This document shows, in pieces, positions 1 to 55,660 of a stretch of DNA of 55,660 bases. Position numbers and translations under genes: made by a program. The notes under the pieces are model-generated. The model did no database searches and had not been told where the DNA came from. It saw nothing but the letters and a program-made list of their open reading frames with translations. How positions within the stretch are numbered: position 1 is the first letter of the stretch; every line of letters starts with the position of its first letter. Where the stretch lies: IMG/VR virus record IMGVR_UViG_3300028794_000001, positions 1 to 55,660 of that record; one strand, written 5' to 3'. The DNA comes from a virus.

Positions 1-127
1 GGCTTCCTTCCCCTTGATCTCCAGCGCTCCGCCCGGTCCCTTGTTCTCGGGGGCGTTCGGATCCGGTTGACGGGGCGCCCCGCTCATCATCGGATCTGGT
101 TGAAGCCCGTTGGGCATTTCCGCGGGC
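1..127. repeat. Terminal direct repeat, identical copy at 55534..55660 (circular-contig overlap)
   Basis: The first 127 nt (GGCTTCCTTCCCCTTGATCTCC...CATTTCCGCGGGC) recur exactly as the last 127 nt. The repeat lies inside one continuous reading frame (portal). Confidence 0.9.
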
Positions 128-825
128 TTGCCAGCCGGGTTGTCCCCGCCCGCGCCCAAGGGCTTGTGCATCTGGTCGGGCGCATGGGGGTTGGCCGCGG
201 TCCGGTCGTCTGGGTTCTTGACCGGCTCGCCGGCCTTGGGGGCAGCAACCGCGGGGTCGCCCTCGGGCTTGGGCGCGGACGGATCACCCGGCTTGACGGT
301 TGGGTCTTTCGCCTGCGCCGCGGGGTCGTCGGGCGGCGGGTCAGTAGCGGGGTCCGCGCCGGGCTCGGCGGGGGGTTTGGCGTAGCGCCCTTCCTCGCCC
401 GGCTTCGGGGCTTCGCCCTCGCCCGGCGCGCCCTCAGGTCCGCCCTCGGGGTCAAGCCCGACCATCTCCGGCTTCAGCTTGTCGGCGTCGTCCGCGCACA
501 GCTCGAAGCCCTCGCGCGTCTCCTCATATGGGATCAGCTCAATGATCCGCGCCGCCATGTCGTCCGCGCGCCACATCACCTCCGCCGTGATCCAGTCGAT
601 CACATTCAGAGAGGGCTCGGCGGTAAGCCGCTTGTCCACGCCGAAGATTCCGAGCCCGCTGACGATGTTGTCCCATGAGTCCCCGCGGATGGGGCTGTCC
701 ACCCGGACGACTTCACCGGTTCGGGGGGTGACATTGCGTCGCAGTAGCGCAGTGGACTTGCCGGCCTCTGGCGCGGAAGCTGCTTTACTGTTAATCAATT
801 TGGCTTGGATGTTCTTGATCCCCAT
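1..825 (-). CDS. Portal protein, N-terminal part. Full gene = 825..128 joined to 55660..54034, about 774 aa
   Basis: The minus frame is open from ATG 825-823 to base 1 (275 codons) and is in phase with ORF 54034..55650 through the 127-nt overlap. The product MGIKNIQ...GDSWDNIVSGLGIFGVDKR...RIIELIPYEETREGFEL looks like a DUF1073-type portal N-terminus. The ORF is absent from the track because it runs off the window edge. Start 825 versus TTG 798 is unresolved. Confidence 0.8.
   Translation of the reverse strand, partial: MGIKNIQAKLINSKAASAPEAGKSTALLRRNVTPRTGEVVRVDSPIRGDSWDNIVSGLGIFGVDKRLTAEPSLNVIDWITAEVMWRADDMAARIIELIPYEETREGFELCADDADKLKPEMVGLDPEGGPEGAPGEGEAPKPGEEGRYAKPPAEPGADPATDPPPDDPAAQAKDPTVKPGDPSAPKPEGDPAVAAPKAGEPVKNPDDRTAANPHAPDQMHKPLGAGGDNPAGKPAEMPNGLQPDPMMSGAPRQPDPNAPENKGPGGALEIKGKEA
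784..794 (+). promoter_or_regulatory. Weak copy of the class I motif (cTTTACTGTTAA)
   Basis: It is one T short of the TTTTACTGT core shared by six intergenic copies. It lies inside the minus-strand portal ORF, about 180 nt upstream of ATG 973. Confidence 0.3.
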
Positions 826-851
826 GAGGCGAAAGGTACACCATCGGGGAA

Positions 852-873
852 TGGACTGGACGCGCGCACTCCA
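852..873. promoter_or_regulatory. Class II upstream element, copy a (TGGAC TGGAC GCGCGCACTCCA)
   Basis: The 17-mer TGGACGCGCGCACTCCA (857-873, arms TGGA/TCCA) recurs identically at 25283-25299 and 52155-52171. Confidence 0.6.
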
Positions 874-943
874 CATGCCCTGGAATCGGACGGTCTTGGC
901 GGTTTGCTTCGACGTAAAGGTCCTGAACTAGGTGAGGGACGGT

Positions 944-959
944 TGGCCCCTGTCCTGCA
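944..959 (+). promoter_or_regulatory. Sigma54-type -24/-12 element TGGCCC-CTGTC-CTGCA
   Basis: The GG and GC dinucleotides are spaced as in the consensus TGGCAC-N5-TTGCW. The block TGCAATAGATACCGAAC-ATG parallels the copies at 25201-25215 and 52064-52078. Confidence 0.5.
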
Positions 960-15046: not shown

Positions 15047-17029
15047 ATGGCCGACCTGTTCGACGATCTGGCGGCAAAGGCCGCGCAAGCTTACGGGGGC
15101 GCGATTGACCTCGCGACTGCGGTCAGCTCGCCGACCATCGCGCTCCCGCCGAACAGGATCTTGATGGAAGGGAAGTACGCCGTCAGGGACAGCGAAGACC
15201 TGCGGAGGATCGAAGCGCTTCCAAGGCGCTCTGCGACGGTAGCCCCGGAGTCGAAGCACTGGCTGGAGCAAGTCGTCGAGTACATGACCGCGTCGCTCCG
15301 GATCGACAATCCGGCGTGTCAGTGCGCGGCGCTGGGGGCTGTGAAGAAAGACGGATCCCCGGACTGCATTCTGCGTCTGCTCCCCGTGCAGGCGGCGTAC
15401 CTCTATGAGGCGATGCTGATTGGCGGGATTCTCGGTCCAATCGGTGTAGGGCACGGCAAGACGGGGATCGACATCCTGCTCCCGATGGTCATCCCGGGAT
15501 GCAAGGTTGCGGTGTTGCTGCTCCCACCGCGCCTGGTGCCTCAGCTGAAGCACGATTTCAAGCTCTGGTCCCAGCACTTCAGGACACCGAACCTCGCCGG
15601 ATGCCCTCCCTTTCGCGCGGACGGTCGCCCCGTGCTCGAGCTGTTGCCCTACTCCATGCTGTCGACGAAAAGCGGCGCAGGCAAGCTGCTGGAGCTGCGC
15701 CCCGACGTGCTGATGATGGACGAATGCCACAACGCGAAGAAGCCGAAGCCGGGCGCGCGCCCGTCCGCGCGATGGGCGCGAATCGAGGACTTCAAGCGCG
15801 CCTACCCCGCTTGCCGCCACTACCGCCACAGTGGCACGGTCACCACGAAGAGCGTCTACGACTACCAGCACCATTCGGAGGACTGCTTGGGCGATCGCAG
15901 CATCCTCCCGCGCGACCCCGATGCGATGGCCGAATGGGCTGCGGCCCTAGATCCAGTCGACGACCCGGCACCCATCGGTGCGCTTCGCCGCCTGTGCCAG
16001 ATCGGCGAGAACGCTCGGCAGGGCTTCCGGAGGCGCCTGGTCGAGACCGCGGGGGTGGTGGCGACCGAGGAAAGCGCCATCGGGAATTCGCTGTTTTTCA
16101 CTGAACGCAAGGTATCGATCCCGAAAGTCATCGGTGACTTGATCGCGAAAACCCGTCTGAGCAACGAACGCCCGGACGGTGAGCCCTTTGCCGACGGGCT
16201 GCGCAAGGCGGCGTGCCTGCGCGAGCTGAGCGCCGGCTTCTATTACGTATGGTACTTCCCACCCATTGACGGCGTTCCGCAACGCGCTTCCGTGATCGAT
16301 CTCTGGCTGGAGCGACGCAAGGCTTACAACAAAGAACTGTACGCCCGGTTGCTGGCGCCGCAGCCCGGAATGGATTCGATGCTGCTCTGTTGGGAGGCTG
16401 CGACGCGCTGGCACGAGGGCTACGTTTGGATCGATGTGCACGGTCACCGGCACACTGAGCCTGCATATTCGACGAGGGGGCCTTACCCGGTCTGGGCGTC
16501 ACAGCACTTCGTCGGGTGGCGCGAGGTCAAAGACACGGTCGTAAAGCAGACCGTTCCAAAATGGGTGGACGATTTTCTGGTCGCGGACGCCCTCGTGTGG
16601 GCCCGCGCGGAGCCCGGGATCGTCTGGTTCGATCACCGCGCCTTTGGGCTGCGCATGCGCGAGCTTGCCCCGGACCTCGGTTTCTACGGCGGCGGGGACA
16701 AGGACGACGAGCGCATGATCGAGGAGCGTGCTAAGGTGTCGATCATCTGCTCAATTGATTCGCATGGTGAAGGTAAGAAACTTCAAAAGTTCTATCGGTC
16801 GTTGATGGGAAATTTCCCCAAAAACAAAACGCTTGAGCAGGTGATCGGCCGTACGCATCGGCAGGGGCAGCACGCCGACGAGGTGGAGATCTGCTGGTAC
16901 CGCCACACCGACGAATATTGTAAATTCTTTGACAACGCGTATGAGCAGGCGCGGTATGTCGACGAGACCCAGGCGAAGAGCGTCGGGGCTTCACAGAAAC
17001 TCCTGCTCGGATCGAAGGACTGGCGATGA
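15047..17029 (+). CDS. SNF2/DEAD-like superfamily 2 helicase
   Basis: Motif I GVGHGKTG, motif II LMMDECHN, motif VI QVIGRTHRQGQ. Confidence 0.85.
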   Translation: MADLFDDLAAKAAQAYGGAIDLATAVSSPTIALPPNRILMEGKYAVRDSEDLRRIEALPRRSATVAPESKHWLEQVVEYMTASLRIDNPACQCAALGAVKKDGSPDCILRLLPVQAAYLYEAMLIGGILGPIGVGHGKTGIDILLPMVIPGCKVAVLLLPPRLVPQLKHDFKLWSQHFRTPNLAGCPPFRADGRPVLELLPYSMLSTKSGAGKLLELRPDVLMMDECHNAKKPKPGARPSARWARIEDFKRAYPACRHYRHSGTVTTKSVYDYQHHSEDCLGDRSILPRDPDAMAEWAAALDPVDDPAPIGALRRLCQIGENARQGFRRRLVETAGVVATEESAIGNSLFFTERKVSIPKVIGDLIAKTRLSNERPDGEPFADGLRKAACLRELSAGFYYVWYFPPIDGVPQRASVIDLWLERRKAYNKELYARLLAPQPGMDSMLLCWEAATRWHEGYVWIDVHGHRHTEPAYSTRGPYPVWASQHFVGWREVKDTVVKQTVPKWVDDFLVADALVWARAEPGIVWFDHRAFGLRMRELAPDLGFYGGGDKDDERMIEERAKVSIICSIDSHGEGKKLQKFYRSLMGNFPKNKTLEQVIGRTHRQGQHADEVEICWYRHTDEYCKFFDNAYEQARYVDETQAKSVGASQKLLLGSKDWR

Positions 17030-17349
17030 AGGCACTTCCCGGAATGAGTTTGAAGGCGTACCGCGAGGAAGGCGACCGCGCGTTTCTGGGCGTGGTGCTG
17101 AAGGAGGCGGGCGGGAATATCGCCAAGGCCGCGCGACTGGCGGGGCTTTCGCGCACGGGCTTATACCGGCTGATGAGCAAGTATGGGATCGAAGTCGCTG
17201 AGAAAGGAGCCGAACCCATCGTTCCGGTCCTTGGAGAGCCGATGGTTTGCGAGCACGCAAACGAAGCCTCTGACATCTGCGAATGCGATGAGGAGTGCTA
17301 CTGCCGGAAGGGGCTGTGCTACATGCGCAGCGCTGAGGCGCGCGCGTGA
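17026..17349 (+). CDS. Stand-alone NtrC/Fis-type HTH (HTH_8-like) DNA-binding protein with Cys-rich tail
   Basis: LKEAGGNIAKAARLAGLSRTGLYRLMSKYGIE matches the pattern of the C-terminal HTH of Fis and sigma54 activators (..GN...AA..LG..R.TLYRK...YGI). No AAA+ domain. Tail: CEHANEASDICECDEECYCRKGLC. Confidence 0.75.
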   Translation: MKALPGMSLKAYREEGDRAFLGVVLKEAGGNIAKAARLAGLSRTGLYRLMSKYGIEVAEKGAEPIVPVLGEPMVCEHANEASDICECDEECYCRKGLCYMRSAEARA

Positions 17350-18200: not shown

Positions 18201-19154
18201 ATGAGTAATCCTTACCCTGGTCAGTTTCCCCCCGCGCCCGCCGGACAACCGGCGGCGCCTCAGTATCCGCCGCAAGCCGGATGGGCGCCTACGCCCCCCG
18301 GTTACCCTCAGGCGCCCGCGCCCCAGGGTTACTACCCTCCCCAGCAGCCCGGGTACGCAGGCCCGCCCGGGTACGCACCCCAGCAGGCGCCGCCGCCCGG
18401 GTATCCCCAAGCACCGAATCCGTTCGGGGCGCCGCCTCAGCAGGGCGGAAGCGTCGTCGACGCGGTGATTCAGGCCGTGCTCGGCGCCGAGTCGTCCGAT
18501 GGTGGGTCGCGCTGGAGGCACGGTCGGTACCTCGTGCTGATCGAGCAACTCGTCTTCAAGCAAGGCAACGAGGGACCACTCTTCGTGCCGGAGTTCCGTG
18601 TCGAGCAGTCGCAGGCGGTCAACATCGTCAACCCCGACACCAACCAGGTGGATGGGCCTTTTGATCCGGGGACGACAATCGGCTTTCCCTGCAAGATGCA
18701 GAAGAAGCCCTCGGCATCGAACGCGCGCGGCTTCGTCCTCGCGATGCTCGAAAAGCCCGAGAACAAGCAGGACCCCGAACTCACCAAGCTGATCGGTGAG
18801 AAGATGGCGCAGTGGTCGCAGCCGGGGCAGCCGCTGCGCGGCTTCGCTGTGCTGATCGAGACGTACAACCACACGATTCGCAGCGGGCCAAACGCGGGCA
18901 AGAACATGATTCGGCTCAAGTTTAAGCGACTGCCGGGGCAGACCGCGGAAAGCGTCACCGCGAACCGGGCGAAGCTTGACCAGTTCGCCCCGCCCGCCGC
19001 GCGAGCTGCGCCGGGTGCTCCCGCGCCGCAGTACCCTCAGGCGCCCGCGCCCCAGGGCTACGCGCCCCCGCCGCTGCCTCCGATGCCCCCCGCTCCGCAG
19101 GCGCCCGGCGCGCCCCCGGCCGCCCCCGGCAATCCGTTTCAAGGTCTGCTGTAG
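18201..19154 (+). CDS. Protein with a globular core flanked by P/Q/Y-rich disordered termini
   Basis: N-terminus: PQYPPQAGWAPTPPGYPQAPAPQGYYPPQQPGY. C-terminus: APAPQYPQAPAPQGYAPPPLPPMPP. A 26-nt direct repeat lies at 18303-18328 and 19032-19057. Confidence 0.7.
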   Translation: MSNPYPGQFPPAPAGQPAAPQYPPQAGWAPTPPGYPQAPAPQGYYPPQQPGYAGPPGYAPQQAPPPGYPQAPNPFGAPPQQGGSVVDAVIQAVLGAESSDGGSRWRHGRYLVLIEQLVFKQGNEGPLFVPEFRVEQSQAVNIVNPDTNQVDGPFDPGTTIGFPCKMQKKPSASNARGFVLAMLEKPENKQDPELTKLIGEKMAQWSQPGQPLRGFAVLIETYNHTIRSGPNAGKNMIRLKFKRLPGQTAESVTANRAKLDQFAPPAARAAPGAPAPQYPQAPAPQGYAPPPLPPMPPAPQAPGAPPAAPGNPFQGLL

Positions 19155-19206
19155 TCCCTCGCGCCGCCCTCGTTCACCGGGGGCGGCGCTTCTTCCCGGA
19201 GTCCCG

Positions 19207-19527
19207 ATGAACACGATGCTCGAGCTTGTCGAAGACGCTTTGCTGAGCGCGCTTGAAGAGGCGGGTCCGAAGCTCCCTAAGGATTTCTCGATTCGGATTC
19301 CTGACAAGGCTTACGCCGCACTCGCGCACGCTGCACCGGCGCCGCATATGATCGCTGGCGGGTACACCATCAGGATCTACCCAGACAGCGCTCTCACATT
19401 GTTCGAAGACATGACGCTTGCCGAATGGATCGAGCACACCACAGCTACGGCGCTGAACGACGCGCCCGAAGACGACTTTCGACGAAGGGCCGCCGCAGCG
19501 CTCCGGAAGGTCAGGACCGGCAAGTGA
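19207..19527 (+). CDS. Hypothetical protein (106 aa)
   Basis: I moved the start to ATG 19207, after GGAG. Product: MNTMLELVEDALLSALEEAG... Confidence 0.6.
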   Translation: MNTMLELVEDALLSALEEAGPKLPKDFSIRIPDKAYAALAHAAPAPHMIAGGYTIRIYPDSALTLFEDMTLAEWIEHTTATALNDAPEDDFRRRAAAALRKVRTGK

Positions 19528-21740
19528 CCCCCGAGCGAAACTACTGGGCATTCGACCTAGAAACCGACCTCATTATGCCCGGGTTGCTGGCGCCCCCGCC
19601 GGTCTGCGCGTCGGTCTCGGACGCCAAGGGGGCTAAGAAGATCCTCGCCGATGCTGAGATCCTTCCATGGGTCGCGCACGAGTTGGACCGATCGATCTGG
19701 ATCGGCGCCAATATCGCCTACGACTTCGGAGTGATCGGCGCCTACTCCCCCTCCCTCGTGCGCTCGATCTTCAAGGCCTACAGGGAAGGCCGGGTCTTCG
19801 ACATTCAGATTGCACAGGCCCTCGATGCCATCGCCAAGGGCACCCTGTTCAAGGACCCGCGCACCGGGGGCGGGCTGAAGGACCCGACGACAGGCAAAAG
19901 CAAAAACCGCTACTCCTTGTCCATCGTGACGGACCTGGTACTTGGGCGAAAGGACGCCAAGGCAAATGACTGGGCGCGCTTGCGCTACTCGCTCTTCCGC
20001 GGCGTACCGCTCGCCGGCTGGACCGAGCATGCGCGGGCGCTCGGCTGCGTTGACCCCGAGGGCGTTACTCAGTACCCGCTGGATGATGCAGGCAATACGA
20101 TGAGCTGTGCGCTCGGGCAGCGCGGACACGAAAACCTTCAGGAAATGGCCGCGCAGTCCTACACCGCTTGGTGCATGCACCTTGGCTCGATGTGGGGTCG
20201 CCGAACGGATCCTGTAGCGGTTGCGAATCTGAAGACGATTATCGAAGCCAAGCACGCAAAGGCTGTGATCGATTTCAAGGCCTCCGGGCTGCTCGACGAG
20301 AACGGCGACGAAGACCAGATCGTCAAGAAGCGGATGGTCGCGACTGCGTACGGCGCAACGGGCATTTGCCCGGCGTGCGTCGGAAGCGGAAAGGTGATCA
20401 GCGAGAAGAGCGGCAACCCGATTCAGTGCAAGGTCTGCAGCGCGACGGGGCTCAACATTGCTTCCGCACCCACGCTCAAGCTGACGGACACCGGGGGCGT
20501 CTGCGCGGATCGCGATGCTCTTTCGGAGTCTGGCGATGATCTGCTAGAGAGCTACGCCGACGTTTCGAACATCAACAAGCTTCGCAACACCTACCTTCCT
20601 TTTCTTGAGCTTGGAACGAAGCAACCGGTCAACGTTCAACCTAATGTGATCGTCGAGAACGGGCGTACCTCGTATGAGGGGCTGATCCAGCTCATCCCGC
20701 GACAGGGAGGGATTCGCGAGTGCTTCCTTCCGCGCGAGGGTTGGCTTTACTGCTCGACCGATTACCCCGCCCTGGAAATGACGACGCTCGCACAGGTCTG
20801 CATGTGGATCGTGGGCTGGTCGCAGCTCCAACAGGCGATTGACGCCAAGCTGGATTTGCACAGCGCCTTCGCGGCGAAGCTGACCGGGAAGAGCTATGAC
20901 GAGTTCTACGCGCTGATCCTCGCGAAGGACAAATGGGCGAAGGGCATTCGCCAAGCCTGCAAGGCCGCTAATTTCGGCTTCCCCGGGTACATGGGCGCAG
21001 CCCGATTCGTTGCCTCCAAGCGCGCGCAGGAGAACTTACGGATCTGCATCTCATTGGGACAAGCCCCGAAGTGCGAGACCTGCCAAGGCGTCGAGGGTAT
21101 CGATTGCAAACGCTGCTACGGGCGCGGATTCCTTTGCGCTCTGGTCAAGGTTACCGAGTGGAACAACCGGAAGACCACCCCGACGTGTAAGCACTGCCTC
21201 GAGCTTGCCGAGGACCTGAAAAAGGGGTGGTTTGCCCAGTGGTCCGAGATGAAGTCCTATTTCGATTTCATCAAAAAGCAATGCGCGAGTCCCCTCGGGG
21301 GGAAGCTGCGTCAGTTCGTCAGCAACCGGTGGCGCGGCAACCTCGACGTCATGAATGGCGCGAACACGCTTTTCTCCGGCCTTGCCGCGGATCTGGCGAA
21401 ATACGCGCTGCGGCTGATCAGCGACGAAGCGTACACCGACGAGAACAGCGCACTTTGGGAGACACGTCCGCTCGAGCTGATCCACGACGAGGTGTTCAGC
21501 GAGATGCCCGAAGCCCGCGCACATGCGGCGGCTTGGCGCCAGGCGGAGCTGTGTGACCAAGCTCTGGCGCGCTATTGCCCCGACGTGAAGCCAAAGAATG
21601 TGGAGCCCGCGTTGATGCGGCGGTGGTCGAAAGACGCCGAGCGGGTCGATGGGCCGGACGGGAAGTTGATCCCCTGGACGCCGAAGCGGAAGCCGGGCGA
21701 GGTGTTCATGTGGGAACCGGGCTACACGGCCGCAGCTTGA
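19524..21740 (+). CDS. Family A DNA polymerase with 3-prime-5-prime exonuclease domain and Zn-finger insertions
   Basis: I moved the start to GTG 19524 (GTGA overlap). Exo I FDLETD, motif B RQACKAANFGFPGYMG, motif C LIHDEVFSE. Insertions: CPACVGSG...CKVCSATG and CETCQG...CKRCYGRG. Confidence 0.92.
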   Translation: MTPERNYWAFDLETDLIMPGLLAPPPVCASVSDAKGAKKILADAEILPWVAHELDRSIWIGANIAYDFGVIGAYSPSLVRSIFKAYREGRVFDIQIAQALDAIAKGTLFKDPRTGGGLKDPTTGKSKNRYSLSIVTDLVLGRKDAKANDWARLRYSLFRGVPLAGWTEHARALGCVDPEGVTQYPLDDAGNTMSCALGQRGHENLQEMAAQSYTAWCMHLGSMWGRRTDPVAVANLKTIIEAKHAKAVIDFKASGLLDENGDEDQIVKKRMVATAYGATGICPACVGSGKVISEKSGNPIQCKVCSATGLNIASAPTLKLTDTGGVCADRDALSESGDDLLESYADVSNINKLRNTYLPFLELGTKQPVNVQPNVIVENGRTSYEGLIQLIPRQGGIRECFLPREGWLYCSTDYPALEMTTLAQVCMWIVGWSQLQQAIDAKLDLHSAFAAKLTGKSYDEFYALILAKDKWAKGIRQACKAANFGFPGYMGAARFVASKRAQENLRICISLGQAPKCETCQGVEGIDCKRCYGRGFLCALVKVTEWNNRKTTPTCKHCLELAEDLKKGWFAQWSEMKSYFDFIKKQCASPLGGKLRQFVSNRWRGNLDVMNGANTLFSGLAADLAKYALRLISDEAYTDENSALWETRPLELIHDEVFSEMPEARAHAAAWRQAELCDQALARYCPDVKPKNVEPALMRRWSKDAERVDGPDGKLIPWTPKRKPGEVFMWEPGYTAAA

Positions 21741-21765
21741 CCGGCGGTTTCATTTTACTGTTAAA
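21737..21765 (+). promoter_or_regulatory. Class I motif: TTGACC-N13-TACTGT within TTTTACTGTTAAA
   Basis: Intergenic, 15 nt before ATG 21777 (with AGGAGG between). The TTGA contains the polymerase stop codon. Confidence 0.5.
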
Positions 21766-21776
21766 TAGGAGGCGTG

Positions 21777-21938
21777 ATGAAAACACTCAACCGCGACGTT
21801 CTTGCGAAAATGACTGCGACCGAGATTCGTTTGCGCCTCGGGCTGCCAGTGGCTGATTTGAGCGCCTGCAGCGTCGACGCCTTGGAGACGACCGTCGCGC
21901 TCGACTGCGCCGCGCTTGCGGCGAAGGCGGGGCGATGA
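21777..21938 (+). CDS. Small hypothetical protein (53 aa)
   Basis: AGGAGG precedes ATG 21777. The stop overlaps ATG 21935. Not in the ORF track. Confidence 0.5.
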   Translation: MKTLNRDVLAKMTATEIRLRLGLPVADLSACSVDALETTVALDCAALAAKAGR

Positions 21939-22579
21939 CCAGGTTCGTCTTCAACGTGGGCGACGGGCGTATCGTCACCCCCATCTCGCTCGGCGGCTAC
22001 CCGGTGATTTACTGGGATCCCCCATGGGGCTACGACGACCCCGGCACCGACGGCGGGGTCGGTCACGAATACCAGACGATGACCTTTGAGCAACTCGCTG
22101 CACTGCCTCTCGACACGCTCGCGGCGCCTACCTGCGCGATGTTCATGTGGGCCACGCGCCCGCGGATGGAAGAGGCGCTTGCATTGATCCGCGCGCACGG
22201 ATTCGAATACGTGAACGAGGCGTTCACCTGGGTCAAGACGAAGGGCACCAACGTTGACGGCTCCGGAAAGCCCTTCCTTGGGCTCGGGAGGATGACCCGC
22301 GGGAATACCGAGCCTTGCCTTTACGCGCGCCGCGGGAAGCCGAAGCGCGCCGACGCCGGGGTGTCTCAGGTCGTCGTGACGAACGAGCTGATTGTCGCCC
22401 CGCTCGGGCAGCACAGCGCGAAGCCCCCAGAAACCCGAGAGTTGATCGCCCGCTTGATGGGCGAGACCCCGCGCGTAGAGCTGTTCGCGCGCGACGCTGT
22501 CCCAGGCTGGGACGGATGGGGGAACCAGTACCCGATGCCGGCGGGACGCCCGGCGCTGACCTTGGAGGAAACAACATGA
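21935..22579 (+). CDS. MT-A70 family DNA N6-adenine methyltransferase
   Basis: VIYWDPPWGY (DPPW catalytic motif), EYQTMTFEQL, GQHSAKPPE. Confidence 0.85.
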   Translation: MTRFVFNVGDGRIVTPISLGGYPVIYWDPPWGYDDPGTDGGVGHEYQTMTFEQLAALPLDTLAAPTCAMFMWATRPRMEEALALIRAHGFEYVNEAFTWVKTKGTNVDGSGKPFLGLGRMTRGNTEPCLYARRGKPKRADAGVSQVVVTNELIVAPLGQHSAKPPETRELIARLMGETPRVELFARDAVPGWDGWGNQYPMPAGRPALTLEETT

Positions 22580-23511
22580 ACGAAATGGTGCAGAAGCTGA
22601 AGCAGGCGATTGACGCGGATCGTGCGCGGTTCAAACTCGACCCGATTTCAAACAACGCGGCTCGAGAGATCCTCGTGCAGATAGGCACCGAGGGGGCGCA
22701 ATGGATCATCAACGGCGGAGGCAACTCCGACAGCGCACATACCGGTCAGCGAATGACCGGGCTGAATCAGTACCAGCAGGAGGTCAAACGCACTTCGAAT
22801 CGCGACCTCAAGGCATATCCGGAATGCCTGCGCGCGGCCGTTGCGGCGATGGTACGCGCGGCCGACGGTATCGTAGGGCCCGATGACCCGTCTAAATTGC
22901 GCCAGCAGGCGCAGGAGCTGTTGAAGATCTGGGATCGGCTCATCTGGGGTTTGGGGTTGGCAGGCGAGGCGGGCGAGGTGACCGACGGGCTCAAGAAAAA
23001 ATACGGACATGGGAAGGCCGTTTCAGACGAATACTTCAAGCTCGAGCTTGGGGACGGCGGATGGTACGGCAATGCGCTGGCCGACAGTTTCGGCTTTACC
23101 GCAGAAGACGTCGCGACGGCGAATTCCGTCAAACTTCGCAAGCGGCACCCCGTGGGGTTCACCGTCGAATCAGCCAACGCGAAGGCCGATGAGGCTCCGC
23201 GTCAATTGACGCAACGCGAGCAGGAAGACGCTGAAGCACTCGCGCAACGTAAGCCTATGTGCTGGGCGACGGCTCCAGTACCCGGTCAATGGATGTGTAA
23301 CCGCGGCACAGGGCATCCGGGCGACCACATAGCGTCCAATGGATATGTAATCTTGGAACGCTGGGCCGCTCCCGCCGTGTTCCACGCATGCGGCGCGCGC
23401 GACCCGAGCCCCGGTCAGTTCCAGTCGAGCTTCCCTTGCAGGTTGACCGACGGTCACGACGGCGACCACATTAGCTCGGACGGGCAGTGGAGCCGGGAGC
23501 GTATCCGGTGA
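22576..23511 (+). CDS. MazG-like nucleotide pyrophosphohydrolase core fused to two C-terminal Cys/His modules
   Basis: I moved the start to ATG 22576 (ATGA overlap). GLAGEAGEVTDGLKKKYGHGK...ELGDGGWY is MazG-like. Tail modules: C..PGQW.C..GTGHPGDHIASNG and C..PGQF...C..TDGHDGDHISSDG. Confidence 0.65.
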   Translation: MNEMVQKLKQAIDADRARFKLDPISNNAAREILVQIGTEGAQWIINGGGNSDSAHTGQRMTGLNQYQQEVKRTSNRDLKAYPECLRAAVAAMVRAADGIVGPDDPSKLRQQAQELLKIWDRLIWGLGLAGEAGEVTDGLKKKYGHGKAVSDEYFKLELGDGGWYGNALADSFGFTAEDVATANSVKLRKRHPVGFTVESANAKADEAPRQLTQREQEDAEALAQRKPMCWATAPVPGQWMCNRGTGHPGDHIASNGYVILERWAAPAVFHACGARDPSPGQFQSSFPCRLTDGHDGDHISSDGQWSRERIR

Positions 23512-24011
23512 GGCTCTACGTCGCCAGCGCTTTCGTAAACAAGTTCGAAGTTCAAAAGGTCCAAAAGGCGCTGCGCAAGGACAGGCACACGATCACCCAC
23601 GACTGGACGAAAGAGAGCGCCGATCACTTGGAAGCCGGTTCGAAGGAATTCTTCGAGTACCTCTACAAGTGCGGCGACGCGGATTTCTTCGGCGTGCTGA
23701 ACGCCGATGCGCTGGTCGTCGTCGCGCATCCAGCTATGAGCGACACCAAAGCAGAGCTGGGGATCGCCCTCGGCGCCGGAATCCCGGTCTACGTGCTCTG
23801 GCCGGAGCGCCGTCAATGCGTCTTCTACGGACGCACGACGCGCTACACCGGCGAGCGCGCGCTGACCAATGTCAGGCGTTCGCTGAAGGTTAGGGAACGA
23901 CAACTGCACATCGGATGGTGCGGCAAACCGGACTATGCCGTACATATGCCTGCGGTTTTCAAGGCTACCGGGAACCGCCCGCCCTTCATCACGGCCGGGA
24001 ATCGGAAGTGA
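23508..24011 (+). CDS. Nucleoside 2-deoxyribosyltransferase-like protein
   Basis: I moved the start to GTG 23508 (GTGA overlap). RLYVASAF..., DADFFGVLNADALVVVAHP..SDTKAELGIALGAGIPVYVL resembles the NDT/Rcl fold pattern. Recalled from memory, not searched. Confidence 0.5.
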   Translation: MRLYVASAFVNKFEVQKVQKALRKDRHTITHDWTKESADHLEAGSKEFFEYLYKCGDADFFGVLNADALVVVAHPAMSDTKAELGIALGAGIPVYVLWPERRQCVFYGRTTRYTGERALTNVRRSLKVRERQLHIGWCGKPDYAVHMPAVFKATGNRPPFITAGNRK

Positions 24012-24310
24012 ACGATCCGATCGGTTCGAATTACGAGCGCGACTGGGGGCAATGCGCGCAGTGCGGTTCGCGTCGACCTGTAAGTAAACTGCAACCGGTT
24101 GCAGTCGACTTTCCAGATGGTCAACAGGCGTGCGCCGATAACTGGTGTGAAAGGTTAAGGGTTCAAAAATGCGTCTCTTCATCGATCCCGGCGCGAACGA
24201 CTTCGGGGCTGCGGTCTTCACCGAAACAGGGGGCGTCTATCGAGCGACGCTCGTTCGGAACGAAGTCGGCCCCGAAGCGTCGGCGCTCGCGCGCGGTGCC
24301 GGCGCGCTGA
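24008..24310 (+). CDS. Possible zinc-ribbon protein; 3-prime end uncertain
   Basis: GTG 24008 overlaps TGA 24009-24011. Product: VNDPIGSNYERDWGQCAQCGS...ACADNWCERL. The frame runs 140 nt into the RuvC-like gene, where the other frame looks coding. Confidence 0.3.
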   Translation: MNDPIGSNYERDWGQCAQCGSRRPVSKLQPVAVDFPDGQQACADNWCERLRVQKCVSSSIPARTTSGLRSSPKQGASIERRSFGTKSAPKRRRSRAVPAR

Positions 24311-24714
24311 ACGGCGTTCTGAACTGGCTGCGGAAGGTAGAGGTTCCCCTTCCGTCGATCATCTCGACGCTCGTGGAAATGCCCTTCGTCTACCCGGGGA
24401 AGAAGACCAAGAACCCGAATAGCGTGATGCTCACCGCGGCCATCGCGGGGGCGTTTGCAGCATTCGGGCTCGACAACCGCAAGGTGACCTCCGTCCTCCC
24501 GCGGGATTGGAAGGGAGGGATGGACGGAGAGGTGTTCATCAGGAAGGTGGTCCAGCCGTCCTGCGAGGACGGCGAGCGTTTGAAGATCGAGCACTGGACT
24601 GCCGCGTTTCCGGCCAGCTACCGGCACAACATCTGGGACGCTGTAGGGCTCGGGTTGTGGCAATTCAAGCGTCTCAAATCCGGGCGTGTTTTCCACGGAG
24701 CTGTTGACGGGTAG
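24169..24714 (+). CDS. RuvC-like Holliday junction resolvase
   Basis: MRLFIDPGANDFGAAVF (Asp), LVEMPFVYPG (Glu), HNIWDAVGLGLW (Asp). Confidence 0.75.
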   Translation: MRLFIDPGANDFGAAVFTETGGVYRATLVRNEVGPEASALARGAGALNGVLNWLRKVEVPLPSIISTLVEMPFVYPGKKTKNPNSVMLTAAIAGAFAAFGLDNRKVTSVLPRDWKGGMDGEVFIRKVVQPSCEDGERLKIEHWTAAFPASYRHNIWDAVGLGLWQFKRLKSGRVFHGAVDG

Positions 24715-24737
24715 CCAGCGACAGTTTTACTGTCAAG
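24704..24737 (+). promoter_or_regulatory. Class I motif: TTGACG-N18-TACTGT within TTTTACTGTCAAG
   Basis: TACTGT ends 6 nt before ATG 24740, which fits a leaderless transcript. Confidence 0.5.
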
Positions 24738-24739
24738 GC

Positions 24740-24979
24740 ATGAAGACCAAGAGCCAAAAGGAGAAACTCACGGAGGCGCTCGAAACGCTTCGCGCGACGC
24801 TTCGGGTGAATGCCCCGAAGCAGTGGACCGCGAAGCAACTTGCCAAGCGGCTGCGCTGCACCCGTGCGACGATCTACAACCGTCTCGAGGCGCTGCACGA
24901 CACGGGGTTCAAGCTGAAATGGGGTGAGAAGCGCGATGGTGCGCGCGGGCCTCTCAGTGCGACGGTCACCGCAGGCTGA
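24740..24979 (+). CDS. Winged-helix DNA-binding protein (79 aa)
   Basis: I moved the start to ATG 24740. WTAKQLAKRLRCTRATIYNRLEALHDTGFKL looks like an HTH_11-type motif. Confidence 0.6.
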   Translation: MKTKSQKEKLTEALETLRATLRVNAPKQWTAKQLAKRLRCTRATIYNRLEALHDTGFKLKWGEKRDGARGPLSATVTAG

Positions 24980-25187
24980 GTTCCAGCGGGTCCCAGATCT
25001 TGCTCGCCATCGCCGCGTCGGCCAACCGCAGCGCCTTCGTTTCAGCAAGCTCCAGGTCGGCGCGCAACGCATCGAACCGGCGCAGGGTGTCTGCAGTCGC
25101 GCGGGTCGAGAAGAGCGCGTGGAGGGCGTCGCGAAGCTCGAACACCTTCGCCTGTGCTGCTTTGGCTTCTGCGTTGATCTCGTTCAT
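24966..25187 (-). CDS. Coiled-coil small protein (73 aa), antisense to the surrounding block
   Basis: I moved the start to ATG 25187 (MNEINAEAKAAQAKVFELRDAL...). It converges on 24740..24979 and overlaps it by 14 bp. Confidence 0.5.
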   Translation of the reverse strand: MNEINAEAKAAQAKVFELRDALHALFSTRATADTLRRFDALRADLELAETKALRLADAAMASKIWDPLELSLR

Positions 25188-25200
25188 GCCCTCTTCTATA

Positions 25201-25215
25201 GCAAAGCCTAGGCCG
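25201..25215 (-). promoter_or_regulatory. Sigma54-type -24/-12 element CGGCCT-AGGCT-TTGC(T)
   Basis: GG-N10-GC register. TTGCTATAGAAGAGGGC-ATG 25187 parallels copies a and c. Confidence 0.5.
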
Positions 25216-25267
25216 TCGTTCAAATCCGCTGAACAATTACCGTGTGAACGCGACACCCACCTAAAGA

Positions 25268-25299
25268 TGGACTGGACTGGACTGGACGCGCGCACTCCA
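25268..25299. promoter_or_regulatory. Class II upstream element, copy b (four TGGAC pentamers + GCGCGCACTCCA)
   Basis: TGGACTGGACTGGACTGGACGCGCGCACTCCA. The identical 17-mer is at 25283-25299. Confidence 0.6.
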
Positions 25300-25335
25300 T
25301 CTGTCCTGATTCAGGACGAAGCGCAGGGGCGCCAG

Positions 25336-25599
25336 ATGAACGAAAGCAAGCAGATGGTCGACGGCACGCCGAGTGCTCGTCTCGCGGACATGAATCCATT
25401 GGTTCGAGCAGCACGCGTGCAGCATCTTCAGGCAGACATGGCGCTTCAGCTTGCGATCCGCAAGGGGCACATCGATGAGGTCGCGCTGCTCGCCCAGCAC
25501 AAAACCGAGTGCATCGATCAGCTGATCGAGATCATGAACGCCGTCGAGCCCGGGTGCTTCGATCTTCCGGAGATGTTCGAGATCGTGGAGGTTCCGTGA
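25336..25599 (+). CDS. Hypothetical protein (87 aa)
   Basis: I moved the start to ATG 25336 (MNESKQMVDGTPSARL...). The stop overlaps GTG 25596. Confidence 0.55.
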   Translation: MNESKQMVDGTPSARLADMNPLVRAARVQHLQADMALQLAIRKGHIDEVALLAQHKTECIDQLIEIMNAVEPGCFDLPEMFEIVEVP

Positions 25600-26303
25600 T
25601 CATCGGGATCGTAGGCAAGAGCGGGAGCGGCAAGGACACAGCGGCGGGCTTCGTACCGGGTGCCAAACGCTTCAGCTTCGCGGACCCGCTGAAGAAGTTC
25701 GCGGGCGAGGTCTTCGACTGGAGCGAGGAGACGCTTTACGGATCCAGTGAGCTGCGCAACGTGCCGGACAAGCGCTATCCGCGCGGACCTTGCACGGCTT
25801 GCTTCGGCGGGCCGCACAGTTACGCCTACGGCCCCTCCGGGAAGTGCAGCCGCTGCGAAGGCGCGGGCATCGAGTACCTCACCCCCCGCTATGCGCTGCA
25901 GACCCTCGGCACCGAGTGGGGGCGCAGCTGCTTCGCGGACACGTGGGCGGTCCTCGGGGTTCGCAAGGCAAAGGAGTGGCGTGAGCAAGTTACGCACGAG
26001 TACGGCTGCCCGCGCGATGGCGAGTGGGTCGAATGGGCTTGCGATCACAGGTGCCCTTCAATTGCGGTTTTCTCGGATTGTCGCTTCGTCAACGAGGCGA
26101 CGGCGATCAGGGCCGCGGGCGGGGTCGTTTGGCGGATCGTTCGTCCGGGCGTTGGTGCAGCGAGTAGCCACCCGTCTGAAACGGAACAGGATTCACCGGA
26201 GATGGAGCGGCTGATCGATTGGACCGTCAAAAATACAGGGTCGCTCGATGTTTTGAAGAGTCGCGTGCTCGAAGCATTCGCAGCCTGTAGGATGACCCCG
26301 TGA
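25596..26303 (+). CDS. Deoxynucleoside monophosphate kinase with Zn-finger insertion
   Basis: I moved the start to GTG 25596. P-loop IIGIVGKSGSGKDT, FADPLKKFA, YALQTLGTEWGR, VFSDCRFVNE. Insertion: CTACFGG...CSRCEGAG. Confidence 0.8.
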   Translation: MIIGIVGKSGSGKDTAAGFVPGAKRFSFADPLKKFAGEVFDWSEETLYGSSELRNVPDKRYPRGPCTACFGGPHSYAYGPSGKCSRCEGAGIEYLTPRYALQTLGTEWGRSCFADTWAVLGVRKAKEWREQVTHEYGCPRDGEWVEWACDHRCPSIAVFSDCRFVNEATAIRAAGGVVWRIVRPGVGAASSHPSETEQDSPEMERLIDWTVKNTGSLDVLKSRVLEAFAACRMTP

Positions 26304-51891: not shown

Positions 51892-52050
51892 TTAGAACCC
51901 CTGTGCCTTCAGCCAGTCGGAAAGGGAGGCGGTCTCACCCTTGGCTTTCGCCGCATACCAGGCCGACACCCGCGCCTGCTGGGCCCGCTCTTCGGTACCG
52001 CGGGGGGCCACGTTCTTCCCGGTGCGCTTCTTCTTCTCGGTCTCAGTCAT
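51892..52050 (-). CDS. Small basic protein (52 aa)
   Basis: ATG 52050, TAA 51892-51894. Product: MTETEKKKRTGKNVAPRGTEERAQQARVSAWYAAKAKGETASLSDWLKAQGF. Not in the ORF track. Confidence 0.5.
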   Translation of the reverse strand: MTETEKKKRTGKNVAPRGTEERAQQARVSAWYAAKAKGETASLSDWLKAQGF

Positions 52051-52063
52051 GCCCGTATCTATA

Positions 52064-52078
52064 GCAACCTCGGGGCCA
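52064..52078 (-). promoter_or_regulatory. Sigma54-type -24/-12 element TGGCCC-CGAGG-TTGC(T)
   Basis: The best match of the three to TGGCAC-N5-TTGCW. 13 nt separate the GC from ATG 52050. Confidence 0.55.
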
Positions 52079-52149: not shown

Positions 52150-52171
52150 TGGATTGGACGCGCGCACTCCA
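52150..52171. promoter_or_regulatory. Class II upstream element, copy c (TGGAT TGGAC GCGCGCACTCCA)
   Basis: The identical 17-mer is at 52155-52171. It lies between the Mu-F-like gene stop (52188) and the sigma54-like element. Confidence 0.6.
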
Positions 52172-52187
52172 CATGTCCGAAGTTCGG

Positions 52188-53168
52188 TCAGTCTTCGCCG
52201 GCCGGCGGCCCCTCCGAAGCCGCGAACAGATCGTCTAGCACCGGGTCGGCGAAGCATCGGCACTGGTAGTCGTCGCCGGGGTGTCCGGTCTCACCGGTGC
52301 GCGAGCTGATCACCGGAGGGTCATCCCAACGCTGCAAGGTTCCATCCAGCTCCGCGTGATCATCACGTACGCGCGAGTCGTTCACGGTGCGCCAGATGTA
52401 CGAGTCGACGCCCAGCGCCTGCTGGCGCGAAGCGTTCAGCTCGCCGTAGAACTTCAGCGTTTGATCTCGGGCGATCAGCTTGGCGCGGGACTCGCTCACC
52501 TCGTACCGGTCCTCTATCTCCGCGACCATCTGCTCGTGGCGCTCGCCCGTGCGGATCCCGTTAATCACCCGCTGCTCGACTTGATCAAAAAACTGCTGAG
52601 GGATCGACTTGATCAGCGCCACGTTCTCGGCCGTGAAGTCCTTGATCCGCTGGGTCAGCCCCGGCTCGGCGATCACCGGGTCGATTCCGAGCTTCGCCTG
52701 GATCTGCTTCCCGAGCTGCTCGCGCTGGAAGGTGGACGTCCGTTCGGCGTACTTGCGCGCGAGCTTGGCAAGATCGCTCGGCGCCCATGCGCGATAGAAC
52801 TGTTCGCTGATCCGGTCGAGCATCTTGTTCACGCGCTTGCCCGGGTCCATTGCGTCGAGCCGGAAGCGCGCGGGGAAGCGAAGGATCGCTTCGTGGTACC
52901 CCATCAGCTCACCGTCGATTCGCACCGAGTCGCCGCGACGCTCCGCCGCGCGCTCGGTCAGCTCCGGCAGAAGGGGGATCAACCGCGCGTTGACCAGCAC
53001 CTTCGCACTGGCGATGACCTCGCGCAGCTCGGCGAAGTAGGCGAGCTGGATCGCGGTGGGCGTGAGCGGCCTGTATTGCCCGCGCGGCGGGCGCAGCCTG
53101 CGCCGCGCCGCTACTTGCTCAGCGAGGCTACGTACTCGACGCGCCATCGAAGGTCTCCAGGAACTCAT
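52188..53168 (-). CDS. Head morphogenesis protein (Mu F / SPP1 gp7-like)
   Basis: YIWRTVNDSRVRDDHAELDGTLQRWDDPP...GHPGDDYQCRCF. The alternative start ATG 53147 would shorten the overlap with the upstream gene. Confidence 0.85.
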   Translation of the reverse strand: MSSWRPSMARRVRSLAEQVAARRRLRPPRGQYRPLTPTAIQLAYFAELREVIASAKVLVNARLIPLLPELTERAAERRGDSVRIDGELMGYHEAILRFPARFRLDAMDPGKRVNKMLDRISEQFYRAWAPSDLAKLARKYAERTSTFQREQLGKQIQAKLGIDPVIAEPGLTQRIKDFTAENVALIKSIPQQFFDQVEQRVINGIRTGERHEQMVAEIEDRYEVSESRAKLIARDQTLKFYGELNASRQQALGVDSYIWRTVNDSRVRDDHAELDGTLQRWDDPPVISSRTGETGHPGDDYQCRCFADPVLDDLFAASEGPPAGED

Positions 53169-54033: not shown

Positions 54034-55660
54034 CTACTTTCCGAAGCCCCCGGGCTTTTTCCCGAATCCGCCTCCTCCGGATGGAGGCTTACCTTTCGCG
54101 ACCGGCTTCCCGCCGAACCCTCCTGGCTTGCCCCCGCTCTTGGGCGGGAAGCCTCCGCCGCCCGGCGCGCCACCCGCCTTGGCTGCCTCCAGGTTCATCT
54201 GAGCGGCCTCGTCGTCCGCGGCCTTGCGCTCGGCCGCCATCGCCGAACGGTCGGAGGTCGCCAGCTTGATCTCCGCACTGAAGGTGTCACCGCCCCACAG
54301 GGACACCGCCCCCTCCTCAGGGGTGATCATCTGGTTGGTAATCGCGAGTGCCACCATCTCGACCACAGCCTTCCGACGCTGCGCTTCTTGCAACTCGTCG
54401 AGTTGCCACAGCGGCTTCCATTTGATCGACCATTTCTCGGGCAGCTTCAGGCCCATCGCTTGCGCCTTCAGCTCGCAGACCTTGCGCACGATCTTGGAGA
54501 GATCTCTGACCTGCCCGGCCTTCACGTCGTCGTAGAACCAGCGGATATTGGCGTCGCCCGTCGCGTTCAGCCCCGCGGGGGATTCGCCCATGAGCTTCGA
54601 CACAGGGATGCGCGCGGCTGCGGCGAGCCTCGTAGCGAAGCGGTCGAGCAAGTCCGGCAGGCCTGTAACCGTGGTGGTCTTGCGCTCGAAGTCTTCGCCG
54701 TCCGCGTCGAGCATCACGGAGTTCAGCACCGAGCGCGAGTAGTCCGCCGCGCGCACGCGGTTGCGGAAGCGCTGCGCGTCCTCGGGATCCTCGCTGGCGA
54801 CGAGGTCAGCCAGACCTTTCATCTTGAAGATCGTCTGGGAAAAGTCCTGCATCAGCACGCCGGTCGCGGCCCAGCTGGATTGGAAGTCCCGGACAATCTC
54901 CCAGCAACGGGTGAGCGTCGAATCCCCCCACCCATTGACCGACTCCCGCCGATGGCGCTTCGACACCACCACCCCGTCGAACCGGACGATCCGGGACTCG
55001 TGGACGATTTGCGTTCCGACCAATCGCCCGAGTCCATCCATATTGTCCGGGGTCAGGTAGTAGGTCTCGATCTCGCCGTACTTCGGCGCACCGGGATCGC
55101 CATACCAGGTGGCAGGGGAAAGCTCGCGCGGATGCAAGACGTTGATCCACTCGAATGCCCTCACGCGCTTCGGGTCCAGAGGCTTGCTCATGTCCCGCTG
55201 TCCGTCGTCGGCGCCGAGCAGCCACGCCCCTCCCCCATACGCGCGCGCGTAGGTGCGCGCCTCGTAGATCTTGGAGAGCAGCTCCATCTCGTCCAGTGCG
55301 TGCTCGATTTCCTCGAGCGGGTCGGGCCCCTCGGGCTGCGGCGCGCCGGGGGCGCCCGGGGGCTGGCCCTGCTTCACAAAGGGCGGGGGTTTGGCGGGCT
55401 GCAGCCCGCCCCCCGCGGCGGGGGTTTCCTCGCCCGGGCGCACAGGCTGCGCGTCGGGGTCCTTGGGGGGCGGGGCGCCCTCGCCCGGTTTCGCTTCCGG
55501 ATTGGGCGTCTCCCCGGGCTTCTCGGAGCCTGCGGCTTCCTTCCCCTTGATCTCCAGCGCTCCGCCCGGTCCCTTGTTCTCGGGGGCGTTCGGATCCGGT
55601 TGACGGGGCGCCCCGCTCATCATCGGATCTGGTTGAAGCCCGTTGGGCATTTCCGCGGGC
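54034..55660 (-). CDS. Portal protein, C-terminal part (continues from 128..825 across the circular junction)
   Basis: EARTYARAYGGGAWLLGADDGQ..., a DUF1073-like core and a G/K/P-rich C-terminal tail. The frame has no stop upstream of 55650 and joins the 1..825 frame. Confidence 0.9.
   Translation of the reverse strand, partial: PAEMPNGLQPDPMMSGAPRQPDPNAPENKGPGGALEIKGKEAAGSEKPGETPNPEAKPGEGAPPPKDPDAQPVRPGEETPAAGGGLQPAKPPPFVKQGQPPGAPGAPQPEGPDPLEEIEHALDEMELLSKIYEARTYARAYGGGAWLLGADDGQRDMSKPLDPKRVRAFEWINVLHPRELSPATWYGDPGAPKYGEIETYYLTPDNMDGLGRLVGTQIVHESRIVRFDGVVVSKRHRRESVNGWGDSTLTRCWEIVRDFQSSWAATGVLMQDFSQTIFKMKGLADLVASEDPEDAQRFRNRVRAADYSRSVLNSVMLDADGEDFERKTTTVTGLPDLLDRFATRLAAAARIPVSKLMGESPAGLNATGDANIRWFYDDVKAGQVRDLSKIVRKVCELKAQAMGLKLPEKWSIKWKPLWQLDELQEAQRRKAVVEMVALAITNQMITPEEGAVSLWGGDTFSAEIKLATSDRSAMAAERKAADDEAAQMNLEAAKAGGAPGGGGFPPKSGGKPGGFGGKPVAKGKPPSGGGGFGKKPGGFGK
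55534..55660. repeat. Terminal direct repeat, second copy of 1..127
   Basis: Exact identity to bases 1-127. Confidence 0.9.

Follow-up and report, generated by a model that had tools for sequence, protein, structure and literature searches.

The 55,660-nucleotide stretch of DNA analysed here (the window), positions 1 to 55,660 of the IMG/VR virus record IMGVR_UViG_3300028794_000001, appears from its Pfam and PHROGs matches to be the genome of a myovirus-like phage, and it contains three copies of an enhancer-like site, each lying beside one or two promoter-like elements that face small accessory genes. We propose that these units, cassettes A, B and C, are host sigma-54 enhancer-dependent promoters driving leaderless accessory genes, a reading to which we assign a probability of about 0.6. 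Cassette B, which an earlier reading of the sequence (the original prediction) had described as a switch point, seems to consist of one shared enhancer and two divergent promoters.

The repeated site and its promoter-like elements

The genome contains exactly three perfect copies of the 17-mer TGGACGCGCGCACTCCA, each on the plus strand (at 857, 25283 and 52155). The 17-mer lies at the heart of a site of 40-50 bp, in which GGAC/GTCC half-sites are clustered in the pattern TGGAC(n)-GCGCGCA-CTCCA-nnn-GTCC-N7-GGAC, which in the promoter-facing reading of this putative upstream activating sequence (UAS) becomes GGACA-nn-TGGAG-N7-GTCCA-GTCCA. A core of ~29 nt around the 17-mer is common to the three copies, and copies A and C match over 49 nt at 80%. 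As originally predicted, three extra TGGAC units precede the 17-mer in cassette B (TGGACTGGACTGGACTGGACGCGCGCACTCCA, 25268-25299), whereas the other copies have a single extra unit, TGGAC at 852 in copy A and TGGAT at 52150 in copy C. Tandem Repeats Finder (TRF) reports TGGAC x4.0 at 25268-25287 as the only perfect short-period array with at least four copies in the genome. Folded as RNA, the motif is no better than shuffled sequences on either strand. The idea of a GANTC methylation site in the flank of the UAS was dropped, as the site is present at A and B and absent at C.

Each UAS copy is accompanied by elements that resemble the -24/-12 boxes of sigma-54 promoters (Table 1). The predicted minus-strand element of cassette B, CGGCCT-N5-TTGCT, is present, but its coordinates had been given one base short (25201-25215) and should read 25215..25200. 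Directly upstream of the ATG, TTGCTATAGA is common to B and C, and its plus-strand counterpart in copy A is TTGGCCCCTGTCCTGCAATAGATACCGAACATG; the element of copy A points right, at the gene starting at 973, with the orientation of the 17-mer unchanged. A 17-mer of constant orientation combined with promoter-like elements that face either way appears to reflect the behaviour of an enhancer or operator, unlike that of an inverted copy of the whole cassette.

The association between the two components is exclusive within the genome. The pattern GGCC[CT][CA]N4[CT]TGC[AT]ATAGA has exactly three occurrences, each 77-86 bp from a 17-mer. When the search is reduced to GG-N10-GC with TGC[AT] and an ATG 12-15 nt past the GC (xGG-N8-xTGC[AT]-N11-14-ATG), only 4 sites are retrieved from the two strands of the 55.5-kb genome, with the threshold at its loosest. 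Every one of them flanks one of the three UAS copies, 72-86 bp away and facing away from it, against a chance expectation of 0.01-0.05. As a negative control, such an element was found 50-115 bp away from 0 of 37 unrelated occurrences of the 17-mer.

Outside the window, the 17-mer was found as 35 scattered single matches in bacterial genomes (596 Gb) and as 2 matches in IMG/VR, all with unrelated flanks, and the motif is therefore not host-wide. A 22-mer version of the repeat had zero matches in metagenome contigs, and neither the UAS consensus nor the composite of UAS and promoter was found in IMG/VR. The composite pattern did give 25 matches in metagenome contigs, all of which lack the dyad and were rejected as chance matches; the phage clade thus seems to be rare in public data.

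Conservation in related phages

A DNA similarity search with the region in a phage collection gave no match, nor did a search with the phage protein Mu-F in IMG/VR, and the relatives obtained through the deoxynucleoside monophosphate (dNMP) kinase were distant phages without the motifs, which were set aside. Informative relatives were reached through Mu-F homologs with 74-56% identity, on contigs L058/L059, L060, L061 and L088/L089, while contig L062 stops before any post-Mu-F site could appear. Downstream of Mu-F, each relative carries GGACA-nn-TGGAG-N7-GTCCAGTCCA, a variable spacer, a -24/-12 element and an ATG 12-13 nt further on. The elements are TGGCAC-cggag-CTGCA in L058, TGGCAC-ctgtt-CTGCA in L060, TGGTAC-cggaa-CTGCA in L061 and TGGCAA-atgaa-TTGCT in L088, and the match to TGGCAC is 6/6 in L058, L060 and L089. 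When the post-Mu-F regions of five phages are aligned by position, the invariant columns are confined to the UAS, TGG, TGC.A and ATG, and the TATAGA of the window is not conserved.

The window alone cannot decide the type of promoter; the invariant blocks of the relatives, in contrast, point to the sigma-54 pattern of -24/-12 boxes with a UAS. Since the sites in this alignment and in the contig described below were defined by position, they are free of the ascertainment bias of a motif search. The predicted sigma-54-like reading of the cassette B element gains from the TGGCAC-N5-CTGCA and cGGCAC-N5-TTGCT of relatives and loses from its weak -24 box in the window itself. Overall, the sigma-54 interpretation is supported by comparative evidence beyond mere resemblance.

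The whole arrangement of cassette B is reproduced on L093, a 1.4-kb contig whose sample also yielded a relative with a Mu-F identity of 66%. Its enhancer, CCGGACAtaTGGAGTGCGCCTGTCCAGTCCAGTCCc, has three GTCCA pentamers and the same GGACA-nn-TGGAG-N7-GTCCA core. On one side, cGGCAC-gagag-TTGCT-N12-ATGAACGAGATCAA faces a homolog of the 73-aa product of cassette B, with 13 nt from GC to ATG and 65 bp from the dyad to GG; the other strand carries the divergent aGGCAC-gggcc-GTGCT-N12-ATGAACCC. GGCAC is matched 5/6 here. Counting pentamers, there are four units in cassette B, three at the orthologous L093 site and two at every other site, such that arrays of more than two units are confined to the bidirectional site, in both phages.

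The spacing of the components is likewise conserved. The GG and GC doublets are exactly 10 nt apart at all four window sites and at their orthologs in L058, L060, L061, L088 and L093. The distance from GC to ATG is 13-14 nt at every site except a doubtful one in L091, an 'island' match with a GTG start and a 16-aa ORF that is probably false; no usable Shine-Dalgarno sequence is found, and these two features suggest that the mRNAs are leaderless. The dyad, expected at ~70-150 bp from the promoter and in either orientation for an enhancer, was found at 72-86 bp in the window and 65-87 bp in the relatives. Where the GTCCA repeats face the promoter, the dyad-to-GG distances are 65 (L093), 65, 66, 75, 77, 86, 86 and 87 bp, and these make up three classes ~10.5 bp, or one helical turn, apart despite insertions and deletions in the spacer. 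The two extra pentamers of cassette B amount to +10 bp, with the helical phase kept, and L093 with its three pentamers belongs to the 65-bp class.

Contig L058 (14 kb) contains four sigma-54-type promoter and ATG units (4881-4925, 7244-7290, 7581-7625 and 11740-11770), two of which have identical first codons (ATGAACGCAAAC). The upstream regions of its isl1 and isl2 promoters are paralogous, which suggests a cassette duplication in L058.

The genes on both sides of the cassette B enhancer are under selection. For the leftward 73-aa gene, whose existence had been proposed from the open frame, the codon-position G+C (GC1/2/3 = 0.68/0.46/0.81) is as in real genes here and is not seen in the mirror frame, and the gene was also called in the source contig. 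A word-based protein search returned only the ORF itself; an exhaustive HMMER search found one homolog, P0123, on L093. The ratio of nonsynonymous to synonymous substitution (dN/dS) relative to L093 is 0.33 for this gene, 0.25 for the winged helix-turn-helix (wHTH) gene of the HTH_11 family and 0.31 for the rightward small gene, and the purifying selection on all three argues that the leftward gene is real. By codon-position G+C, no other gene between 7422 and 26303 lies on the minus strand, in agreement with the original prediction, and the predicted 14-bp overlap of the leftward gene with the convergent gene 24740-24979 (24966-24979) recurs in L093, where the HTH_11 gene converges on the 73-aa homolog with the same 14-nt overlap. 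The AlphaFold2 (AF2) model of the 73-aa protein (pLDDT 86) is a two-helix hairpin with a disordered tail, for which a fold search found generic helical hairpins only (best E 0.65). A two-helix hairpin with a disordered tail is also confidently predicted for the rightward small protein.

The gap between the two annotated genes (25188-25335) is indeed 148 bp long, but it probably does not feed the rightward gene as had been supposed, since P_B-right, a sigma-54-type element that the original prediction had missed, sits inside the annotated 5' end of that gene and is conserved in L093. Both phages retain another ATG in frame, 18 codons before the rightward start, so that read-through transcripts could yield a longer isoform; within this stretch, the residues that are conserved fall on GGCAC and GTGCT. 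According to the source-contig gene call, the rightward gene ends with a stop codon that overlaps the beginning of the dNMP kinase gene (25596). On the left side no terminator-like structure follows the 73-aa ORF (fold z = +0.6), unlike in cassette C, and antisense read-through from P_B-left into the wHTH gene and beyond is thus plausible. This geometry, with possible antisense read-through on one side and a possible boost to the downstream kinase genes on the other, could conceivably act as a 'switch' with mutually exclusive expression in the two directions, as had been proposed.

Table 1. Positions of the cassette components, their genes and the main gene blocks in the window
Feature	Position	Strand	Description
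UAS-A	852..891		TGGAC x2, 17-mer, GCCC-N7-GGAC remnant of second dyad; 32 nt from portal ATG 825 (minus)
UAS-B (putative enhancer)	25268..25317		TGGAC x4 25268-25287; 17-mer dyad TGGAC-N7-CTCCA 25283-25299; second dyad GTCC-N7-GGAC 25303-25317
UAS-C	52150..52189		TGGAT+TGGAC, 17-mer, GTCC-N7-GGTC; abuts Mu-F stop codon
P_A (putative promoter)	944..959	+	TGGCCC-ctgtc-CTGCA, 13 nt, ATG 973; GG 80 bp from dyad centre
P_B-left (putative promoter)	25200..25215	-	CGGCCT-aggct-TTGCT (CGGCCTAGGCTTTGCT); GC 13 nt before ATG 25187; GG 77 bp from dyad centre
P_B-right (putative promoter)	25362..25377	+	CGGCAC-gccga-GTGCT, 12 nt, ATG 25390; GG 72 bp from dyad centre
P_C (putative promoter)	52063..52078	-	TGGCCC-cgagg-TTGCT, 12 nt, ATG 52050; GG 86 bp from dyad centre
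73-aa gene	24966..25187	-
Winged-helix gene	24740..24979	+	Pfam HTH_11, E 1.8e-8
Rightward small gene	25390..25599	+	69 aa; 87 aa from in-frame ATG 25336
52-aa basic ORF behind P_C	51892..52050	-	Two strong hairpins next (51800-51890)
HTH_8 protein	17026..17349	+	107 aa; NtrC/FleQ/Fis-type; Pfam HTH_8 E 2.9e-8; PDB matches to FleQ/NtrC/Fis HTH
Rightward block	7422-26303		VapE-type primase/helicase, family A DNA polymerase, MT-A70 methylase, MazG, RuvC-like protein, dNMP kinase; homologs of MW202816.1 genes annotated 'cas system-associated protein' and 'ATP dependent chromatin remodeling protein'
Leftward block	55650-26574		Portal, Mu-F, protease, cement, capsid, sheath, tube, baseplate, M15 endolysin
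Terminase genes	7285-5116	-

Promoter class and competing explanations

If the cassettes depend on sigma-54, the 17-mer and its pentamers would form the core of the enhancer, and each copy would serve one or two -24/-12 promoters 72-86 bp away. Host RNA polymerase carrying sigma-54 would wait at these promoters as a closed complex and would fire only once an enhancer-bound ATPase activator loops to the polymerase. The transcripts would start at the ATG or 1-3 nt before it, yielding leaderless mRNAs. In cassette B, the gene of the 73-aa helical hairpin would be driven by P_B-left, and its unterminated transcript would run on in antisense, into the wHTH gene as well as the replication-gene block; P_B-right would serve the ORF at 25390 and probably also the gene for dNMP kinase. 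Since no activator is encoded by the phage, it is presumably a host enhancer-binding protein.

Several points weigh against this reading. No AAA+ sigma-54 activator (Sigma54_activat) was found by Pfam among the phage proteins, a scan that covered all but a few ORFs of at most 50 aa; the missing activator seems to lower the certainty without excluding sigma-54 membership, because activators are normally unlinked host genes. The -24 boxes TGGCCC and CGGCCT of the window differ from TGGCAC, and the generic consensus score is not discriminating here, in that the window sites score 8-10/12 against TGGCAC-N5-TTGCW while 31 sites of this GC-rich genome score at least 9/12. The presence of rpoN in the host is an assumption. 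Proteobacteria are the hosts of the nearest cultured phages, and a single distant homolog was binned with Steroidobacteraceae; both groups normally carry rpoN, so that these links are a weak fit to, and no proof of, an rpoN-bearing host. Leaderless mRNAs from sigma-54 promoters are unusual. As for the comparative evidence, the related phages share common ancestry and their sites are not fully independent, several of the relative sites were found with a regular expression requiring GG/TGC and carry its ascertainment bias, and the sites of opposite orientation (72, 80, 81 and 86 bp) phase less cleanly.

The stand-alone 107-aa HTH_8 protein, in which the domain is N-terminal, has the only NtrC/Fis-type DNA-binding domain of the phage. 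Its gene start overlaps by 4 nt the stop of the preceding 660-aa gene (15047-17029), and a word-based search of 5.8 billion proteins found no homolog except itself. The protein is a candidate binder of the UAS.

One might instead regard the elements as extended -10 promoters of sigma-70 (TGnTATAGA), leaderless as lambda PRM, with the 17-mer site as an operator at which the phage HTH_11 or HTH_8 protein acts as activator or repressor. The sequence TGCTATAGA of B-left and C does fit TGn with a -10-like hexamer 7 nt upstream of the ATG, the phage encodes two small HTH proteins and lacks a gene for a bacterial enhancer-binding protein (bEBP), and UAS-A is placed where an operator for the portal promoter could be. 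However, the extended -10 is not conserved: TGCTATAGA is seen only in B-left and C, with TGCAATAGA at A and CGTCTC at B-right, and the orthologs have ATAACT, ATGTCT, ATGTAC, AAACTA or CTGATC next to an invariant TGG/TGC. The site is centred ~100 bp upstream, which is far for a class I/II sigma-70 activator, a sigma-70 consensus scan near each UAS copy found no promoter, and the HTH_11 gene is also present in L003, which has no cassette. We thus consider sigma-70 control unlikely. Recognition by a phage-specific polymerase or sigma factor, with the 17-mer as an accessory site, is more doubtful still and seems to us very improbable. It would explain the three near-identical blocks in one genome, 20-26 nt long and including CTATAGAAGAG, which is present in B-left and which we take to resemble the -5..+6 region of the SP6 promoter, and two large early proteins have no Pfam family. 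On the other hand, no scanned protein matches an RNA polymerase or sigma family, both large early proteins are homologs of the annotated MW202816.1 proteins listed in Table 1, and in the relatives the TATAG core is not conserved, the conserved block being bipartite with a variable N4-5 centre.

The repeats could also be non-regulatory, as recombination scars or module boundaries left by the insertion of accessory cassettes (morons), with the pentamer expansion as neutral slippage. The cargo is variable and absent from distant relatives, the 49 nt common to A and C flank the portal/Mu-F module, and the pentamer count varies between phages (4 vs 3), all of which would suit such an origin. It is nevertheless quite improbable, given that the spacers have diverged freely while the two elements, the helical phase and the ATG spacing are kept in at least five phages, that the 17-mer has one orientation with promoters facing either way, and that the fit to one known promoter class would have to be a coincidence. 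Finally, the pentamer tract could be a coding contingency (phase-variation) tract, in which gain or loss of 5 nt shifts the frame of a rightward ORF begun at ATG 25267 (N-terminus MDWTGLDARTPS...). The source-contig gene call does span 25267-25599 (110 aa), with the frame open from 25267, and the unit number differs between the window (4) and L093 (3), a difference seen between phages only. This explanation seems hardly credible: no ribosome-binding site lies ahead of 25267, the gene caller extends the opposite-strand ORF through the same DNA in L093, so that such extensions look artefactual, arising where frames stay open in GC-rich DNA, the corresponding site at A and C is plainly outside any coding sequence, and the conserved start contexts are those of ATG 25390/25336 and 25187.

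Genomic setting and comparison with known systems

The ends of the window are identical over 127 bp (1-127 = 55534-55660), indicating a circular assembly of ~55,533 bp, which derives from a metagenome contig in ENA (the source contig). Its G+C content is ~64%, no tRNA genes were found, and an Rfam scan of the window returned zero families. Real genes were separated from shadow ORFs by codon-position G+C. None of the window proteins scanned matched an integrase, repressor, RNA polymerase or sigma factor, and the phage is probably virulent. ORF 876..1 is the N-terminus of the portal protein, in frame through the circular junction (54034..55533 + 1..825, ~774 aa), and its start at ATG 825 on the minus strand is backed by relative L058 (MGIKN/MGIKD). 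A long low-complexity insertion rich in Pro, Gly, Ala and Glu follows the N-terminal segment of the portal protein. The portal ATG lies ~20-32 nt from the enhancer (window 826-972; L058 7581-7719), with no leftward promoter evident in the divergent gap, and the portal/Mu-F operon has no promoter of the UAS-linked -24/-12 type.

The cargo of the cassettes appears to consist of non-core, fast-changing accessory genes placed between core phage genes. No cargo protein scored above threshold against any family in Pfam or PHROGs, and no cargo gene has a counterpart in the distant relative MW202816.1. P_A points into an island of small genes (973-3316), and the layout of the window recurs in L058, down to an opposite-strand small-gene island between the terminase module and the portal gene. 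The first P_A product (42 aa) is 56% identical to the product of an L058 island gene that has its own promoter copy; it is the only cargo with such a homolog, and the post-Mu-F cargo is different in each phage. In the syntenic relative L003, the wHTH gene is joined straight to the dNMP kinase gene and cassette B is absent. Cassette C combines a promoter-like element, the 52-aa ORF and two hairpins, which fold with z = -4.06 (0/200 shuffles as stable) and include a terminator-like match at 51863-51886.

Other features were noted along the genome. Beyond the hairpins of cassette C, and together with them within 51556-51890, a 79-aa lipoprotein-like gene (MRTLRFVLLLPLVLVAAC...) with its own AAGGAG ribosome-binding site lies amid the head genes. 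Two neighbouring small genes of the P_A island, 1105-1371 and 1368-1655, are paralogs that have QAPAMARLLL...LRAAGxLP C-terminal halves in common. On the minus strand, 3313-4176 encodes a 287-aa ORF rich in Gly, Ala and Ser, with ~60-nt internal repeats (families D2 and D6) and atypical codon statistics, whose assignment as a collagen-like fibre gene is uncertain. The divergent gap that separates the first rightward gene from the putative small-terminase gene contains TTGACG-N17-TACTAA (7330-7365), plausibly an early promoter of sigma-70 type. An AT-rich gap at 7913-8169 (also 7700-7760) is dense in GTTCCT/AGGAAC hexamers in both orientations, with AGTAGGAAC twice at 8020-8038; it resembles an iteron or operator array and is possibly an origin or a repressor-binding region. 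MW202816.1 (L057) shares the architecture of the window and instead has TTGACA-N17-TATAAT early promoters and a TCCGWCGGA motif; this palindrome, with flanking A/T runs, is present there in at least 10 copies (e.g. 9311, 9784, 19786, 22449, 39800 and 40368).

A sigma-54 promoter stays completely silent unless an activated ATPase is present, and such promoters are usually described in host stress, nitrogen, flagellar and envelope circuits. If our reading is correct, the phage would gate its accessory genes, which could be host-takeover or anti-defence genes, on the signalling state of the host without a polymerase, sigma factor or activator of its own. The cassettes would also provide a set of sigma-54 promoters giving leaderless mRNAs and, in cassette B, a compact natural bidirectional enhancer with 5-bp units and conserved phase as a model for short-range looping. 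It is conceivable, but unlikely in its full extent, that a clade of virulent-type myoviruses with a private enhancer wires swappable accessory genes to host sigma-54 as leaderless units, so that their expression follows the activity of a host AAA+ activator, with the HTH_8 protein possibly as adaptor or competitor at the enhancer, and that the bidirectional copy is a true switch which, once activated, sets antisense transcription against the replication operon (the wHTH gene and those upstream of it) and at the same time boosts the nucleotide-kinase genes downstream. The searchable literature yielded no account of a phage with its own multi-copy enhancer and sigma-54 cassettes.

Among known systems, the activators Mu C and P2 Ogr/P4 Delta bind at about -40 to -55 of sigma-70 promoters that drive structural operons. 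There as here, a few promoters without a good -35 share a dyad activator site; in the phage, by contrast, the site lies at about -100 of -24/-12 promoters, and accessory genes would be driven. In classical morons the promoters are ordinary sigma-70 ones, and expression is typically from a prophage. The cassettes resemble them as small non-core genes between core genes with their own promoter and variable cargo, and with terminator-like hairpins at cassette C, but differ in that the same enhancer type and a sigma-54-type promoter recur in every unit, and in that no integrase or repressor was found.

The cassettes also resemble sigma-54 enhancer systems with NtrC-family activators, such as glnAp2/NtrC, nifH/NifA and pspA/PspF. 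Common to both are a GG-N10-GC core without -35/-10 elements, which comes close to TGGCAC-N5-TTGCW most clearly in the relatives, and a dyad of 17 bp, accompanied by extra half-sites and centred ~90-110 bp upstream of the start, in either orientation and with the helix face kept. Unlike in these systems, the three UAS copies with their four promoters reside in a probably virulent phage and are private to its clade, the element includes no activator gene, the start codon keeps a constant distance of 13-14 nt from the GC, and the half-sites are tandem pentamers with 5-bp spacing and variable count. For the bidirectional copy, the comparison is the Ps/Pr region of the TOL plasmid, whose divergent promoters share one sigma-54 UAS under XylR. 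Cassette B likewise places one enhancer between two divergent units, but both of its promoters seem to be of sigma-54 type, one of them directed antisense into the upstream operon, and its enhancer carries an expanded repeat array.

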